Shown here in pieces: positions 42,031 to 47,606 of a stretch of 64,000 nucleotides of DNA. The stretch covers positions 544,001-608,000 of the forward strand of contig CAWFDF010000008.1 of the NCBI GenBank assembly GCA_963814585.1, given 5' to 3'. This DNA comes from an uncultured delta proteobacterium. GTDB taxonomy: Bacteria > Myxococcota > Myxococcia > Myxococcales > Anaeromyxobacteraceae. Below the pieces are notes generated by a model. It saw only the letters and a list, made by a program, of their open reading frames with translations, was not told the origin of the DNA and ran no database searches. The position numbers were made by a program, and so were the translations under genes. Positions within the stretch are counted from its first letter, which is position 1, and the number at the start of each line of letters is the position of its first letter.

Positions 42031-43194
42031 TCACGGACGGGAGGACGGAGGAGGAGGCGGCGGCGGAAACCTCTCGAGCGGGAGCTTCCCCTCATGCAGC
42101 GTCCCGTCCACCACGAAGGTGGGCGTCGACCGGATGTTCGCCTTCATCCCGGCCGCGATGTCGGCCGCCAGGCGCGCCTCGGTCGCCGGCGATCCCAGGC
42201 ACGCCTTGAACCGGCCCACGTCGAGCTTCAACCGGGCCGCCAGCTCCTCGGGAGTCGCCGGCGACCTCTGGCTCGCGTACAGCGCGTCGTCCATCGCCTC
42301 GAACTGCCCTTGCGCCTCGGCGCAGATGGCGGCGCGCGCCAGCGAGCAGGCCCTCTGGTGGAACGGCCGCTTCAGCACGGGGTTGCACGCCTGGTCGAGC
42401 GGGAAGTGGCGCCGCACCACCTGGATGTCCGGCCTGATTCGCAGCACCTCCCGCAGCTCGGCGTGGGCGAGGGCGCAGTAGGGACACTCGTAGTCGCTGA
42501 ACAGCACCGCCGGCCCGGTGGCGGCCGGCAGCGGCGGGAGGATCGACAGGACGTTGCCCGCCGCCGTCGAGCCACTCGGCGGCCTCGCCCGCACCTCGAC
42601 GCGCGGGTAGGTGGCGATGAGGAGCATCACCCCCACCAGGCCGGCCACCACCACGGCCGCCGCCCGGCGTGGATGGCTCCAGGCCGCCCGCAGGTCGGCC
42701 CGCACGGAGGCGGCCGCCCCCACCGGCCGGGAGGCCAGCCAGCCGGTCACCAGCAGCCCGAGCGACACCGCCCAGGACCCCATGCACAGCAGGCACCACG
42801 CGCCCACGCCCAGCTTGGAGATGAACGCCAGCGCCACCGACGTGGCCGCGGTGAAGCCTCCCAGGACCAGCAGCAATCCCGCCGGCCATCGAGGGTGGAG
42901 CCGCCCCGCCGAGAGCCCCCACGCCGAGAGCGACGCGACCACGGCATAGCCGACCACGCCCCAGGCCGCGATCGGCACGCCGAAGAGCACCGACCAGCCG
43001 CTCAAGGCCACCTTGTCGCAGTCGACCTCCTCGCTGATGGTGCAGAAGCTCGTCAACCCGGCCGCGGCGTCGTGGTGGACGCGCACCAGGAGGGCAGCCA
43101 TCGCCATGCCGGCCAGGGCGAGCAGCAGCGAGGCCGCGAAGGCCGCGCGAGGCGTGGGCGGCGTTGGCGTCCTGGGCGCGGGCTGACGGGCCAT
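42031..43194 (-). CDS. VKOR-DsbA fusion disulfide oxidoreductase
   Basis: FCTISEEVDC, WCLLC, FSDYECPYC, HFPLD, STPTF. Confidence 0.92.
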   Translation of the reverse strand: MARQPAPRTPTPPTPRAAFAASLLLALAGMAMAALLVRVHHDAAAGLTSFCTISEEVDCDKVALSGWSVLFGVPIAAWGVVGYAVVASLSAWGLSAGRLHPRWPAGLLLVLGGFTAATSVALAFISKLGVGAWCLLCMGSWAVSLGLLVTGWLASRPVGAAASVRADLRAAWSHPRRAAAVVVAGLVGVMLLIATYPRVEVRARPPSGSTAAGNVLSILPPLPAATGPAVLFSDYECPYCALAHAELREVLRIRPDIQVVRRHFPLDQACNPVLKRPFHQRACSLARAAICAEAQGQFEAMDDALYASQRSPATPEELAARLKLDVGRFKACLGSPATEARLAADIAAGMKANIRSTPTFVVDGTLHEGKLPLERFPPPPPPPSSRP

Positions 43195-43209: not shown

Positions 43210-43512
43210 CTAGTCGATCGAGCAGGGCTTGATAGGCTCACAGGGCTTGGCGTCCGCTGCCTTGCCCGGCTCGACCGTCTTGCCGGTGCCCGCCGCCTTG
43301 CTGGCATCCTCCACCCGGGCCGGAGCGGGCTTCGTGGGTGGCTCGGTCGCCTTGGCCGGGGTGCCTTTGGCCGGGGTGCCCCGGGCTGGCGCCGTCTGGG
43401 CCGGCGCCGCCGCGCTGGAGGACGCATCGGCCGGCGCCTTGTCGATCGTGCCATCCGAGATCGAGATGATCGCCAGAGAGGCGGCGAGCGATTGGGCGAT
43501 GAACTGGTTCAT
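43210..43512 (-). CDS. Small Pro/Ala/Lys-rich protein with a C-terminal Cys pair
   Basis: Hydrophobic N-terminus, low-complexity middle, ends KPCEPIKPCSID. Confidence 0.7.
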   Translation of the reverse strand: MNQFIAQSLAASLAIISISDGTIDKAPADASSSAAAPAQTAPARGTPAKGTPAKATEPPTKPAPARVEDASKAAGTGKTVEPGKAADAKPCEPIKPCSID

Positions 43513-43572
43513 GTGGTGTCTGACCTCGCTGCGGGAGTTAACCCGGACCTCACCTCCCGCGCAACCACCACG

Positions 43573-45393
43573 TCAGCGTGCGGGCTCTCCGCCAGGCGTC
43601 CCGGCCCCGCCGGCGCCGGCGCCGGCCCGAGCTCGCAGCCCGTCCCGCTCCCGCTCCGCGGCCGCCGCCCGCGCCGCCTCGCGCTCCGCCACCGCCCGCG
43701 CCGCCCCGAGCGCCGCGGCGTTGTCGCGAAGCTCCTTCTCCAGGGCCGCCCGCCTCGCCTCCAGCGACCGCGCCTGTCCCTCGGCGTCCCCGACCCGGCG
43801 CCGCGCCTCGTCCCGCTCTCCGCCCAGGCGCCCCGCCTCCTTGAGCGCCGCGGCCTCCCGACGCCCGGCCTCGGCCGCCGCCTCCCGGGCCGTCGCCAGC
43901 TGTGCCTCCACCCCGGCCAGACGCTTGAGCGCCCCCTTGGCCTCCCCCTCCGCCCGGGTGGCGACCTCCCGCCCGTGATCGGCCTCCTGCCGGGCGGCGC
44001 CCAGCGCCTGCTCCAGCCTGGGGAGCTGGGCCAGCCGCGCCTCGACCCGCTTCAGCTCCTTCTGCTTGGAGTCGGCAGCGCCTTCCAGCCGGGCGATCTC
44101 CGCCTCCAGCGTCCCTCGCGAGCGATCGAGCTCCTCGAGCTTCCGTCCCAGCGAGGCCTCACGCGCCGTCAACTCGAGCAGCTTCCCGGTGAGCAGCTGG
44201 TAGCCGGCCACCACCAGGGGAAGGAGCACCGCCACCACCGCGGCGGCCGCGGCCAGCTCGCTCCGGTGGCGCCGGATGAAGAGCGCCGCGCGCCTCAGCC
44301 CGGAGCGGCGCTCGTGCCAGGTCGGCTCCAGCTTGCGGAAGCGGCGCAGCTCATCGGCCAGCGCCCCCGCCGTGCTCGGCCGATCCTCCGGGCGCTGCGC
44401 CAGGGCCCTGGCCACGATCTCGCGCAGCCGCGGGGGGACTCCGCTCGGGAGCGGAGGTGGCCTGGGATCGGCGTCGCCGCTCCGGCCGGCGTGAGGTGCC
44501 GTGCCCGAGAGGAGGAAGTAGAGCGTCCCGCCGAGCGTGTAGACGTCCGAGGCCGGCGTCGGCGGCAGCCGCTCGCGCCACTGCTCCGGCGCCATGTACG
44601 CGACCGTGCCGATGGGGAGCGAGCGCCCGGTCGCCGTTCCACCCCAATCCGGCGCGCTCCGCCGCCCGTCCTGCCGGGCCCGGCCTTCGGCGCCCGGGGC
44701 CGCCTCGTCCGGCTGCGCCGCCGCCAGCGAGGTGGCGATGCCGAAGTCGGCCAGCATCACCCGCCGGCTCTCCGGCGTGAGCAGGACGTTCTCCGGCTTG
44801 ACGTCGCCGTGGACGATGCCGGTCCGGTGCGCGGCATGGACCGCGCCGGCCAGGTCCTCCACCAGCCGGGCTGCGTCCAGCGGGGAGAGCCCGGGCTGCG
44901 CCTCCCGAAGGGAGCGGCCGATCCGGATCGAACCGGGCGCCTCCTCGTCCGGATCGGCGCAGACCGCCATCTCCACGTAGAAGGGACCGCCCTCGATGCG
45001 GCCGGCGTCGAAGACCGGCACCACGTGGGCACTGGGAATGCGCCGCGCCCGTCCGGCCTCGCGCCGCACCTGCTCGACGAACTCGCTCATCCCGGGTCCC
45101 GGGCGCAGCAGCTTGAGCGCCACGTAGCCGTCGAGCGGTGGCCGCCGCGCCAGGTAGACCTTGCCGTGCGCCCCCGCGCCCAGCTCGCGCTCCAGCGTGA
45201 ACGGCCCCAGCTCCACCGGGTACGGTCCCGAGGGCAGTGGCCCGTCCGGCCGGTCGTAGTGGGCCAGCAGCGCGTGGACCAGCTCGGCCAGCGCGGCGTC
45301 GCCGCCGCACAGCTCGTCGACCAGCCTCGCCCACTCGGCCCGGTCCTGCTTGAGGACCAGCTCCACCACCACGTCAGCGCCCAGCCTGGTCAC
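43573..45393 (-). CDS. Ser/Thr kinase with TM and long coiled-coil C-terminus, coupled to the ECF sigma
   Basis: ELCGGDAALAELV N-terminus, GAGAHG, VALK, HGDVKPEN, DFG, GTVAYMAPEQ; GTG overlaps the sigma gene's TGA. Confidence 0.9.
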   Translation of the reverse strand: MTRLGADVVVELVLKQDRAEWARLVDELCGGDAALAELVHALLAHYDRPDGPLPSGPYPVELGPFTLERELGAGAHGKVYLARRPPLDGYVALKLLRPGPGMSEFVEQVRREAGRARRIPSAHVVPVFDAGRIEGGPFYVEMAVCADPDEEAPGSIRIGRSLREAQPGLSPLDAARLVEDLAGAVHAAHRTGIVHGDVKPENVLLTPESRRVMLADFGIATSLAAAQPDEAAPGAEGRARQDGRRSAPDWGGTATGRSLPIGTVAYMAPEQWRERLPPTPASDVYTLGGTLYFLLSGTAPHAGRSGDADPRPPPLPSGVPPRLREIVARALAQRPEDRPSTAGALADELRRFRKLEPTWHERRSGLRRAALFIRRHRSELAAAAAVVAVLLPLVVAGYQLLTGKLLELTAREASLGRKLEELDRSRGTLEAEIARLEGAADSKQKELKRVEARLAQLPRLEQALGAARQEADHGREVATRAEGEAKGALKRLAGVEAQLATAREAAAEAGRREAAALKEAGRLGGERDEARRRVGDAEGQARSLEARRAALEKELRDNAAALGAARAVAEREAARAAAAERERDGLRARAGAGAGGAGTPGGEPAR

Positions 45394-46169
45394 GCGTCCG
45401 CCTCCTCTCCCGCCCTGCCCCTCACCTGGCGCGCCGCCACCCACGCCGCGAAGAGCCGCAGGTCCTGCTCCACCCGCGCCGGCGTCGAGCCGAGGGCCGC
45501 GGCGATGGCTGACCGTGACTCCCCGTGAAGGTAGTACCTCCGCGCCGACTCGGAGATGGCCACCCGCCGCCCCAGGCGCGGGTCGACGGCCGCCGCCGCC
45601 GCCGCCCGCTCCACCAGTCCCAGGTCCGGCGCCACCGCCAGCCGCGCCCAGGCGAGGAAGAAGGCGAGCCGCTGCTGGACCATCCCCTTCGACTCGCCGA
45701 GCAGCTCGGCCGTCTCCGACTGGGTGAAGCCGGCCACCAGGTGGCACTCCACCGCACGGGCGATGCGCCGGCGGCGCGAGATGTTGGGATCGGCGCGGAG
45801 CTGCGCCAGCAGCTCCAGCACCGCCAGCGAGTCCTCACGGGAGCCCGTCAGCGCCTCGCCGTGGATCAGCGTGAGCACGGGCAGCAGCGAGGCGGCCTCG
45901 CGCCCACGCCGCCGCGCCGTGGCCCGCCAGCGGGAGATCCAGAGCCGGCGGATGAGGAAGAGGCAGTAGGCGGTGAAGTGGCGGGCGTCCCGGAAGGTGG
46001 TGCGCCGGCGGAGGATCCTCTCCAGCGCGGTGTGCAGGCCGGCGGTGCCGGCCAGCGTCGGCGGAGCGCCCCGGCTCATGGCGCGGACGCGCTCGCGCAG
46101 CTCGTCGTAGGCCTCGGCGACCAGCTGCTCGGTGCTCGGGCCCTGTCCCGCTGTCGCCGCCGTCTCCAT
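45390..46169 (-). CDS. ECF43-like sigma factor with a tandemly duplicated sigma4 domain
   Basis: AYDELR, TLAGTAGLH, DARHF; two 69-aa repeats DP...A-xx-LG...V-x-Q-x-L...AW. Confidence 0.8.
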   Translation of the reverse strand: METAATAGQGPSTEQLVAEAYDELRERVRAMSRGAPPTLAGTAGLHTALERILRRRTTFRDARHFTAYCLFLIRRLWISRWRATARRRGREAASLLPVLTLIHGEALTGSREDSLAVLELLAQLRADPNISRRRRIARAVECHLVAGFTQSETAELLGESKGMVQQRLAFFLAWARLAVAPDLGLVERAAAAAAVDPRLGRRVAISESARRYYLHGESRSAIAAALGSTPARVEQDLRLFAAWVAARQVRGRAGEEADA

Positions 46170-46361
46170 CGGAGCGCCCGAGGGTATCCCGGACCGGGGC
46201 TCCAGGGCAGGGGCGGCCGGAATCTCGCCGCGGTGAAAAGGCCCGTTTCGGTCGTGGTGGCGGCAGCTTGGAGGTCCTGCCGGCCCGGGCCCGGTAGCCA
46301 GATGGGCGAGCGGCGGCGTCTGTGGATCACGGGGGCACGTCGCCCCGAGGAGAACACGACC

Positions 46362-46913
46362 ATGCCGACCAGCCAGACCGAGCGACCTTCGCTCGCCACC
46401 GTGCCCGCCATCGCCGACGCCCAGCGCTGGGCCCACCTGCTCGACCACGCCCGCGCCGTCGCCGCCAAGGTGCTCCGCCGGCCCAGGACCCACCCCGACG
46501 TCGAGGACCGCGCGCAGGACGCGCTGGTGGCGTTCCTGGTCTCCGGGATGCCTCGCTTCGACGCCGCGCTGGGAACGCCCGAGGCCCTGCTCGGCACCAT
46601 CGTCCGCAACGGGGCGCTGTCGCAGCTTCGTGACGGCGCCACCCAATCCCGCCTCGGCGCCCAGCTGGCCGCCGAGACGCCCACCTCGAGCCCCGGCTCC
46701 CAGCGCCGTGCCGAGGCGGTCCGCGACCTCGGCCGCGTCCTCTCCCGCCTCTGCCCCGGGCACGCCGAGGCGCTGGTCAGCATCGACCTGGTGGGCGAGG
46801 GGATCGCCGAGGCCGCCCGCCGCCTCGGCAAGAGCTACCAGGCCATGAACGGCCAGGTGGGGCATGCTCGCGCCGCGGCCCGGCGGGTCGCGCTGGAGCT
46901 CGTGGCGGCCTAG
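46362..46913 (+). CDS. Second ECF-type sigma70 factor
   Basis: DVEDRAQDA (region 2.2), RFD, IVRN, GEGIAEAARRLGKS...ARAAAR; GAGGAG RBS. Confidence 0.8.
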   Translation: MPTSQTERPSLATVPAIADAQRWAHLLDHARAVAAKVLRRPRTHPDVEDRAQDALVAFLVSGMPRFDAALGTPEALLGTIVRNGALSQLRDGATQSRLGAQLAAETPTSSPGSQRRAEAVRDLGRVLSRLCPGHAEALVSIDLVGEGIAEAARRLGKSYQAMNGQVGHARAAARRVALELVAA

Positions 46914-46957: not shown

Positions 46958-47506
46958 CTACCGGCGAGCGACCTGCTGGCCATCGGAGCGCTGGTCGCCC
47001 GGCAGGCGCAGCTCGGCGCGGCGGTTCTGGCTCCAGGCCTCCTCACCCGCACCGCTCACCAGCGGAAGCTCCTTGCCGAACGAGACCGTCTTCAGGGCCG
47101 CCCCGACACCGAGATCCACCAGGTAGGCACGGACCGAGTCGGCGCGGCGGTTGCCGAGCGCCAGGTTGTAGGCGGTGGTCCCGCGCTCGTCGGTGTGCCC
47201 CTCGATGACGACCGAGACCGGCCGCCTCTGCTCGAGGCAGGAGGCGGTGGTCTTCAGCTCGGCGCGGGCGCCGGCGTCGAGGCTCGCCGAGTCGAAGGCG
47301 AAGTGGACCCGCGAGACGGAGCAGGCGGGCGGGTCGGCGACCGGCCGCGGCTCGATGGACGGGGCGGCGGGCGTCGCGGACGAGGCGACGACGTCGCGGA
47401 CCTCGGTCTCGGGCCGAGCGACCGTGGCCGGCGAGGCGCAGCCGGCGGCGAGCGCGGCCAGCAGGGCGCCGAGGAAGAGGGGGGTGACGATACGGTCCAC
47501 GCGCAT
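46958..47506 (-). CDS. OmpA/Pal-like peptidoglycan-binding lipoprotein
   Basis: Lipobox AAGC, FAFDSASL, IEGHTDERG, YNLALGNRRA, SFGKELP, NRRAE. Confidence 0.92.
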   Translation of the reverse strand: MRVDRIVTPLFLGALLAALAAGCASPATVARPETEVRDVVASSATPAAPSIEPRPVADPPACSVSRVHFAFDSASLDAGARAELKTTASCLEQRRPVSVVIEGHTDERGTTAYNLALGNRRADSVRAYLVDLGVGAALKTVSFGKELPLVSGAGEEAWSQNRRAELRLPGDQRSDGQQVARR

Positions 47507-47606
47507 GTGGGGCCTCCGGGCCTGGTGGCGGGATCGGACCCGCACCCGTGCTACCCACCACCCCTGGAGTTCTCTCGCGCCGCCCCGGGCCTGGCGGCCA
47601 GGACCG

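Follow-up and report, generated by a model that had tools for sequence, protein, structure and literature searches.

Sigma factors of the extracytoplasmic function (ECF) type are defined as a sigma2 domain plus one sigma4 domain. What, then, would a second sigma4 domain do in such a protein? The question is raised by a 259-residue ECF43-like sigma factor (P0001; 45390..46169, minus strand) encoded in a window of 64,000 nucleotides from an uncultured delta proteobacterium of the Anaeromyxobacteraceae (assembly GCA_963814585.1, contig CAWFDF010000008.1, positions 544,001 to 608,000), in which an earlier note, made from the letters of the DNA, had seen two tandem sigma4 domains. We find that this tandem sigma is a real, conserved and apparently undescribed variant of the kinase-gated ECFs, with a predicted target circuit. 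The landmarks used in that note (DP127/DP196, AW173/AW242 and TLAGTA with Thr42) lie where it placed them in the 259-residue open reading frame; of the DP repeat mark, the Asp is conserved among homologs while the Pro is not (24/120 at position 128).

Two sigma4 folds in one ECF sigma factor

The protein consists of a sigma2 domain with an Arg-rich region 2.4 helix (residues 12-84; 45918..46136), a canonical sigma4 copy, sigma4a (residues 111-179; 45633..45839; T149/E152/S160, and T163/K165 in distant members), and a duplicated copy, sigma4b (residues 180-248; 45426..45632), with an intact fold from which the DNA-contact signature is gone; all three are encoded on the minus strand. The two sigma4 folds are spaced 69 residues. 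Self-alignment of the two halves gave a score of 76 with 20/61 columns identical, which none of 5000 shuffles equalled (mean 26, maximum 57), and the G+C content at third codon positions is 0.94-0.96 in both repeats alike. An AlphaFold2 model based on 120 homologs showed the four-helix pattern twice, at 111-126/133-145/150-157/161- and then -195/202-214/219-226/230-, with a predicted local distance difference test score (pLDDT) of 85-97 in ten-residue blocks across residues 121-250, a predicted template modelling score (pTM) of 0.74 and one continuous helix, 161-195, linking sigma4a to sigma4b. Modelled alone, sigma4b reached a pLDDT of 90 and best matched SigR4 (Z 9.2, root mean square deviation (rmsd) 1.8, 62 aligned), with SigmaE4 at Z 8.3; its top 13 structural matches were sigma factor chains only. 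The claim of two sigma4 folds is thus borne out by the model. A Foldseek search with the full-length model and with lone sigma4b returned no row at E <= 0.001.

A hidden Markov model scan, which the earlier note had suggested should yield two Sigma70_r4 hits, gave a divided answer. Pfam reports Sigma70_ECF at residues 8-176 (37.4 bits, cut-off 21.1), one Sigma70_r4 match instead of two, and on the lone second repeat only HTH_28 (E 0.05), with no Sigma70_r4 or r4_2; a profile built from the sigma4a family detects both copies, scoring a median of 33 bits on 26 sigma4b sequences. This near-invisibility of the second repeat to Pfam may be one reason why databases label such proteins plain ECFs. 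The best NCBIfam match of the whole protein is TIGR02999 (Sig-70_X6), at 55.5 bits below its curated cut-off of 126.15. A frameshift, fusion or assembly artefact is ruled out by 147 homologs, mostly of 243-286 residues. A reading as sigma3 plus sigma4 is also ruled out: an ECF linker precedes the first helix-turn-helix (HTH), a continuous helix joins the two HTHs, and the repeats are closest to each other.

Distribution, origin and selection

The 147 homologs came from a word-index search, the best 120 at 69-91% identity over most of their length, and an exhaustive profile search added 11 more full-length clusters at 26-46% identity, with both repeats present. Beyond those clusters lie ordinary single-sigma4 ECF43-like proteins, in which the match ends at about position 180. 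Homologs that carry names belong to Anaeromyxobacter or Anaeromyxobacteraceae, one of them (P0046) from the described species Anaeromyxobacter oryzae. The tandem sigma occurs in 33 of the 92 genomes of the window's myxobacterial family, from soil and sediment, and a scan of a genome-contig collection for the tandem form gave at least one locus. Outside this family, no tandem form was found among the best 150 of 233 matches in 401 genomes of the phylum, where two longer-looking matches turned out to be single-sigma4; none of 133 single-sigma4 relatives had a second sigma4 domain. Sigma4b was not found in any other architecture among 66 matches, and a part search of the Atlas gave leads below 0.9 only.

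The second repeat is filled in all 139 rows of the merged homolog alignment. Uncorrected ratios of nonsynonymous to synonymous differences (pN/pS) over 21 genes were 0.27 for sigma2, 0.33 for sigma4a, 0.43 for sigma4b and 0.84-0.95 for the termini; judged from these ratios, both repeats are under purifying selection. Neither outcome that the earlier note gave as refuting its reading, an HTH fold in just one repeat or a lack of homologs with both repeats under selection, is therefore seen. When 26 + 26 repeats were put in a tree with 30 of the 133 single domains, using few columns and a rough bootstrap, sigma4b formed one clade (99/94) and the single domains fell apart from both repeats (99/99). 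Because sigma4b is monophyletic, the single domains are separate, and a five-residue insert and an Ala-to-Phe change are common to both repeats and missing from single-sigma4 relatives, the comparison indicates one internal duplication as the origin of sigma4b.

Some loci depart from the usual arrangement. In L098 (G032:C31) the tandem sigma is split over two frames and in L048 (G030:C2) the kinase described below is called as two pieces, in each case possibly through sequencing error or decay. Single-sigma4 ECF43-like sigmas with long kinases occur within the same family at L079 (G091:C4) and L080 (G079:C69), and G091 has its single-sigma4 sigma beside its tandem system.

The two sigma4 copies compared

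Sigma4a has T/S149 in 132/139 and E152 in 137/139 homologs, and in 21 distant members T163 in 15 and K/R165 in 13; we take these T/E/T/K-type positions (TxxE...SxxTVK) to be the DNA-contact residues of other sigma4 domains. At the equivalent places sigma4b has P218 (93/139), A221 (78/139) and E234 (107/139), the last at a position that is presumably basic in most sigma4 domains, and the TxxE...SxxTVK signature was absent when looked for in sigma4b across the 139 aligned homologs. The recognition region has a conservation of 0.94 and a charge of +2.0 in sigma4a, against 0.80 and -0.25 in sigma4b. What distant members keep of sigma4b is mostly its core (A223, V233, L237, F240, W/Y243), while the close clade also conserves the surface arginines R198, R201, R210, R211, R219, R232 and R247, each in at least 87%. 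Sigma4b is probably a pseudo-sigma4, a domain that retains the fold and has lost the base-reading face.

A kinase partner and a predicted phosphosite

Residues 38-43, TLAGTA, replace the acidic motif of region 2.2. Thr42 (codon 46044..46046, minus strand), the predicted phospho-acceptor, stands third in AGTA, as do the phospho-Thr of ECF43 QTTA and of EcfK QATE in the portion of PMC13147305 available, and its counterpart when single-sigma4 relatives are aligned is the Thr of TL(Q)xTA. Of the 139 homologs, 138 have T here and one has S, in keeping with Thr42 as the equivalent of EcfK T51 and of the Thr of EcfP. T100, a candidate counterpart of the second, linker phosphosite of EcfK (T106), is present in 107/139 and is not among the residues common to the 21 distant members.

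A Hanks-type Ser/Thr kinase of 606 residues (43573..45393, minus strand), whose start overlaps the sigma stop (GTGA), follows directly downstream of the tandem sigma in 33/33 genomes and is the sole neighbour constant across all 33 loci, which upholds the partnership that had been proposed. It comprises an N-terminal helical segment, a non-RD kinase domain, a single transmembrane (TM) helix (residues 380-398, hydropathy peak 2.39) and a C-terminal tail of about 190 residues rich in Ala, Glu and Arg. K94, D197, N202, DFG and APE are invariant in 114 kinases, with HGD or HSD in the catalytic loop. The tail is read as a periplasmic coiled coil; in four tandem-family kinases scanned there were no TPR families and only weak matches to coiled-coil families, where a TPR ectodomain is typical of ECF43 kinases according to the accessible part of the PMC7826278 supplement. 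A clade-specific insert in the kinase alignment, MAVCADPDxxxPGSIRxG (44911..44970, minus strand), occurs in 14/14 tandem-family kinases and in 0/2 kinases of single-sigma4 ECF43 systems. The first 50 residues (45244-45393, minus strand) form a helical segment, LCxGDxxL...LL, that is shared with the latter kinases and is a candidate sigma-binding element.

As to expression of the pair, a TAnnnT -10-like hexamer, TACCCT (46181..46186, minus strand), lies 11 nt 5' of the sigma ATG, and inspection by eye placed such a hexamer shortly 5' of the sigma start in most loci. A scan for the sigma70 consensus and for terminators found no full sigma70 site and no terminator. We infer that TACCCT is a housekeeping-type, near-leaderless promoter of the sigma gene, which would fit constitutive synthesis with control by phosphorylation. 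Downstream of the kinase, a small protein without a Pfam family (43210-43512, minus strand), found in 6 loci, is preceded by a conserved TTGCGC-N17-TTAACT-like promoter-like site (43536-43564) and followed by a VKOR-DsbA fusion (42031-43194).

A predicted target promoter and sigma cascade

The divergent gene beside the tandem sigma in the window encodes a second, ordinary two-domain ECF sigma, ECF-B (46362..46913, plus strand; 183 residues), with an acidic region 2.2 (DVEDRAQD). Upstream of this predicted target lies motif A, GGTAGCC-N11-CGGCGGCGTCT (46293..46321, plus strand), which is predicted to form the -35 and extended -10 elements of a promoter for the tandem sigma. Its consensus is GGTRGCC-N11-CGGYGGCGYTT, with a non-conserved spacer. 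Motif A is present at the locus in 22/22 close-clade genomes, and the exact pattern occurs once each in 16 of these 22, in 0/70 other genomes and in 0/337 control upstream regions. A position weight matrix scan of the window's own genome, with its own site excluded from training, found a single strong site, at 25.3 bits, the runner-up scoring 19.1. Five distant loci have a related -35/-10 pair 5' of their ECF-B gene. Beyond ECF-B lies a gene for an OmpA/Pal-family lipoprotein (46958..47506, minus strand; OmpA E 4e-20), the predicted end output, preceded by motif B, GAGAGAA-N13-GGGTAG (47551..47576, minus strand), the predicted ECF-B promoter of ompA.

A natural variant separates the two motifs. 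ECF-B was not found in six genomes; its position is taken there by the OmpA/Pal gene, which lies under motif A in 6/6 and under motif B in 0/6; among ECF-B-bearing genomes with ompA nearby, 14/15 have motif B and 0/15 motif A in front of it, against a motif B background of 14/337 control upstream regions. Since motif A stays and motif B is gone where ECF-B is not found, motif A is very probably read by the tandem sigma, and ECF-B is likely to transcribe the OmpA/Pal lipoprotein gene from motif B. The simplest reading is that one lineage removed the middle step, placing ompA directly under motif A. Autoregulation, in which ECF-B itself would read motif A, is disfavoured by the persistence of motif A in the six genomes without detected ECF-B. 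Wider regulons were sought and rejected: one-mismatch matches to motif A are frequent in genomes that lack the sigma and the reversed control matches too, and strict motif B gave 21 matches against 36 for its control.

The six apparently short-circuited loci are L060-L065 (G023, G029, G034, G036, G021, G032); G033 (L058), in which identical flanking genes enclose an intact ECF-B and convergent ompA, looks ancestral. At L049, L051 and L059 the sigma gene is parted from motif A/ECF-B by an unrelated inserted gene, for a CHASE hybrid histidine kinase or an acyltransferase. A GGGGGC..GCCCC hairpin (46331..46346, plus strand) sits where the ECF-B transcript is predicted to begin; motif-A transcripts seem to open with such a G-rich hairpin, the G-run (motif positions 38-41) being kept despite the differing downstream gene. 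A distant sub-clade, L073-L078 (genus g3), has the tandem sigma and kinase without a nearby ECF-B or motif A; the divergent gene of L073 encodes a low-complexity protein with a signal-peptide-like start.

Upstream DNA and the role of sigma4b

The earlier note had offered an extra upstream element as one possible target of the second sigma4. A base-specific box one turn above the -35 element did not emerge, there being no conserved box at -14..-1 (0.22 bits, against 1.5), but a less specific feature did. With the opening base of the -35 box as reference, TT falls at -26..-23 (about 24 bp above the box) in 18/22 promoters and further A/T peaks lie at about -36 and -46. The amplitude of the 10.5-bp A/T periodicity was 4.64, against a mean of 1.02 and a maximum of 3.14 for a shifted null (0/2000), and the periodicity persists in 8 non-redundant promoters. 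In the 3 loci with an insertion between motif A and the sigma gene, the periodicity stays beside motif A. In the window, the phased A/T lies at 46246..46271 (plus strand), with TTT at -47..-45 and GCTTGG at -27..-22. With a start site placed, by estimate, some 37 bp from the first base of motif A, the A/T peaks would fall at about -61, -72 and -83.

Taken together, these elements suggest the following mechanism. The tandem sigma and its membrane kinase would be made together at a low constitutive level, and by analogy with EcfP and EcfK the sigma is very probably inactive until the kinase phosphorylates Thr42. The phosphorylated sigma would then join core RNA polymerase and open one promoter, motif A, where, on comparative genomic grounds, sigma2 with its Arg-rich 2.4 helix would read CGGYGGCGYTT and sigma4a would read GGTRGCC. 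The product of motif A would be ECF-B, in turn transcribing the OmpA/Pal lipoprotein gene from motif B; because the end output is an OmpA/Pal lipoprotein, the circuit of kinase, tandem sigma, second sigma and OmpA lipoprotein looks like an envelope response. Sigma4b, fused rigidly to the C-terminal end of sigma4a's recognition helix, presumably projects toward the side of upstream activators and of the C-terminal domain of the RNA polymerase alpha subunit (alpha-CTD). There it may hold or prop bent upstream DNA through backbone contacts or change how alpha-CTD binds, and would in this way serve as a built-in activator arm, tightening or boosting the motif A promoter. In view of the phased A/T and TT upstream and of this rigid fusion, we tentatively favour a division of labour in which sigma4a reads the -35 element and sigma4b is an extension that reads no bases and acts on upstream DNA. 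The full picture, of one polypeptide that engages its promoter from -10 to about -60 to -85, is gated by phosphorylation and sits atop a kinase-sigma-sigma cascade short-circuited in some lineages, is doubtful as a whole.

Several points weigh against this account. Binding of alpha-CTD or of another activator would also leave phased A/T near -61, -72 and -83, and contact between sigma4b and DNA is itself tentative at best. The sigma4b helix is not basic, position 232 being D/E in 18/21 distant members. Motif-B promoters show an A/T amplitude of 0.08 (n = 12), a weak control in which the regions are often coding DNA. Both motifs, A and B, were defined by visual inspection of loci in which they were then tested; the six ECF-B-less genomes are 56-91% complete and probably one clade, hence one event; and the six genus-g3 loci with sigma4b have no motif-A-like site and no ECF-B at the locus.

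The closest rival makes sigma4b a kinase-docking module that would hold the sigma at the membrane and confer substrate specificity, leaving sigma4a free for DNA and the beta-flap; on the kinase side, the docking surface would be either the helical segment at the N-terminus or the insert specific to the clade. Loss of the DNA-contact residues around a conserved core would suit such a role, as would a kinase that is the only neighbour at 33/33 loci and whose insert marks 14/14 tandem-family and 0/2 single-sigma4 kinases. Docking of an HTH-like C-terminal domain on a partner has a precedent in the dCas12f-associated sigmaE, as presented in the available parts of 10.1101/2025.06.10.658880 and PMC13472631; the chain of that sigmaE, 9n9q_C, was the top, non-significant Foldseek row (E 0.015). 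The co-occurrence of insert and sigma4b is, however, a single evolutionary event, single-sigma4 ECF43 proteins do without sigma4b, and docking leaves the phased upstream A/T unexplained. We regard docking as somewhat unlikely, though close behind the upstream arm. ECF-B as the partner of sigma4b is disfavoured, since 12 genomes without ECF-B at the locus still have sigma4b. An improbable alternative, the autoinhibition suggested in the earlier note, is that sigma4b folds back within the molecule, onto either sigma2 or the pocket of sigma4a that binds the flap, and so adds a further lock to that of Thr42. With CnrH in its anti-sigma-bound state the compact model (pTM 0.74) does align across both domains (Z 9.4, 137 aligned, rmsd 5.2), and C-terminal extensions of ECF41 are partly inhibitory in the accessible text of PMC8999054; yet the aligned range, 8-183, covers sigma2 and sigma4a, the continuous helix 161-195 allows little fold-back, and the sigma is already predicted to be off without phosphorylation.

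It is likewise improbable that sigma4b has no separate job and is retained as a structural cap, the copies depending on each other for folding. Distant members conserve mostly its core, and its constraint is weaker than that of sigma4a (pN/pS 0.43 against 0.33), both as a cap would predict; but sigma4b is predicted to fold well alone, its surface arginines are conserved in the close clade, and none of the 139 aligned homologs is an intact one-copy revertant although one stop codon would suffice. That both copies read bases, with sigma4b recognising an alternative -35 element or the two sharing a GGYRGC direct repeat (the -35 box and CGGYGG 19 bp downstream), is highly improbable. In the close clade GGTRGC (positions 0-5) and GGYGGC (19-24) do form a repeat, and R219 and R232 are conserved; against this, five distant two-copy loci keep a -35-like GGC[CA]G and a -10-like CG[CTG][TG][TG] and lose CGGYGG, E234 is acidic in 107/139, and there is one motif-A site per genome. 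This single site and the lost T/E/T/K signature also speak against the -35 specificity switch proposed in the earlier note. A second base-specific box is unlikely because the turn above the -35 element shows no conserved box and the distant clades with both copies have not retained CGGYGG. An arm acting on upstream DNA remains our preferred, if tentative, reading of sigma4b.

Significance and comparison with known systems

The tandem sigma illustrates that duplication of sigma4 can become fixed and persist across deep time, at 27-46% identity between sub-clades. Target promoters of kinase-gated ECFs are poorly known, and for a direct test this system offers a phosphosite (predicted), the kinase paired with it, one target promoter of high information, a predicted downstream sigma with its own promoter, a natural short-circuit variant and a homolog from a described species; an 18-base motif found once per genome would also suit an orthogonal, kinase-switchable transcription part. 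The sigma4 duplication is a route of sigma diversification not found in the portions of the ECF classification text and reviews searched, where the extensions listed are SnoaL, TPR, Cys-rich, TM, DUF1835 and WD40, with no sigma4 duplicate (PMC7826278, PMC8999054, PMC8103513). The architecture had been put forward as undescribed, and no two-sigma4 ECF was described in the literature searched; the alignment of about 1000 ECF43 proteins of Iyer et al. 2020 could contain one.

The ECF43-like identity first assigned to the protein stands on its Sigma70_ECF domain, which instead of separate r2/r4 matches is an ECF43 feature in the accessible part of the PMC7826278 supplement, on an uncharged region 2.2 motif with Thr, and on a +1 Hanks kinase with one TM helix. 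The features of ECF43 that it lacks are the TPR kinase ectodomain, the two-domain sigma2 plus sigma4 architecture and the GTC (-35)/CAG (-10) promoter, itself a prediction in that part of the supplement, where motif A has GGTRGCC/CGYTT. A sigma tree with an outgroup of 4 ECF-B only places the tandem clade (91/84) next to its sister group, 18 single-sigma4 relatives (83/52). Given its architecture, kinase ectodomain, predicted promoter, score below the TIGR02999 cut-off and sister-clade placement, the tandem sigma appears to work like ECF43 without being a strict member, as a sister clade with modest support.

Among characterised systems, EcfK-PknS of Xanthomonas citri and EcfP-PknT of Vibrio parahaemolyticus are alike in the Sigma70_ECF domain, the uncharged region 2.2 with Thr, and a +1 Hanks kinase with an N-terminal extension, one TM helix and no adjoining anti-sigma. 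Unlike EcfK and EcfP, the tandem sigma has a second sigma4, the 5-residue insert and A-to-F change in both copies, a different promoter and another sigma as its target; unlike PknS and PknT, its kinase belongs to the non-RD type, carries an insert specific to the clade and has an ectodomain resembling a coiled coil in place of TPRs. The dCas12f-associated sigmaE of Bacteroidetes (PDB 9n9q; 10.1101/2025.06.10.658880, PMC13472631) is, in the available text, an ECF of about 260 residues with an HTH-like domain after sigma4 whose role is non-canonical and partner-facing. That C-terminal domain binds dCas12f, is not described there as a sigma4 duplicate, and belongs to another phylum and another ECF lineage; the fold resemblance is slight (E 0.015 and rmsd 28 by Foldseek; E 0.48 by profile, over sigma4 only), and no Cas gene was seen with the tandem sigma. 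FliA, WhiG and SigB (group 1-3, sigma3 plus sigma4) likewise have two HTH-type domains after sigma2 and a similar length, and appear as weak Foldseek rows, whereas each repeat of the tandem sigma is nearer to its partner repeat than to the sigma4 domains of other ECF43 proteins. ECF41 (SnoaL), ECF42 (TPR) and ECF238 (Cys-rich) also combine a fused post-sigma4 extension with a tiny adjoining regulon and no anti-sigma; in the tandem sigma, by contrast, the extension is a copy of its own sigma4, combined with kinase gating.

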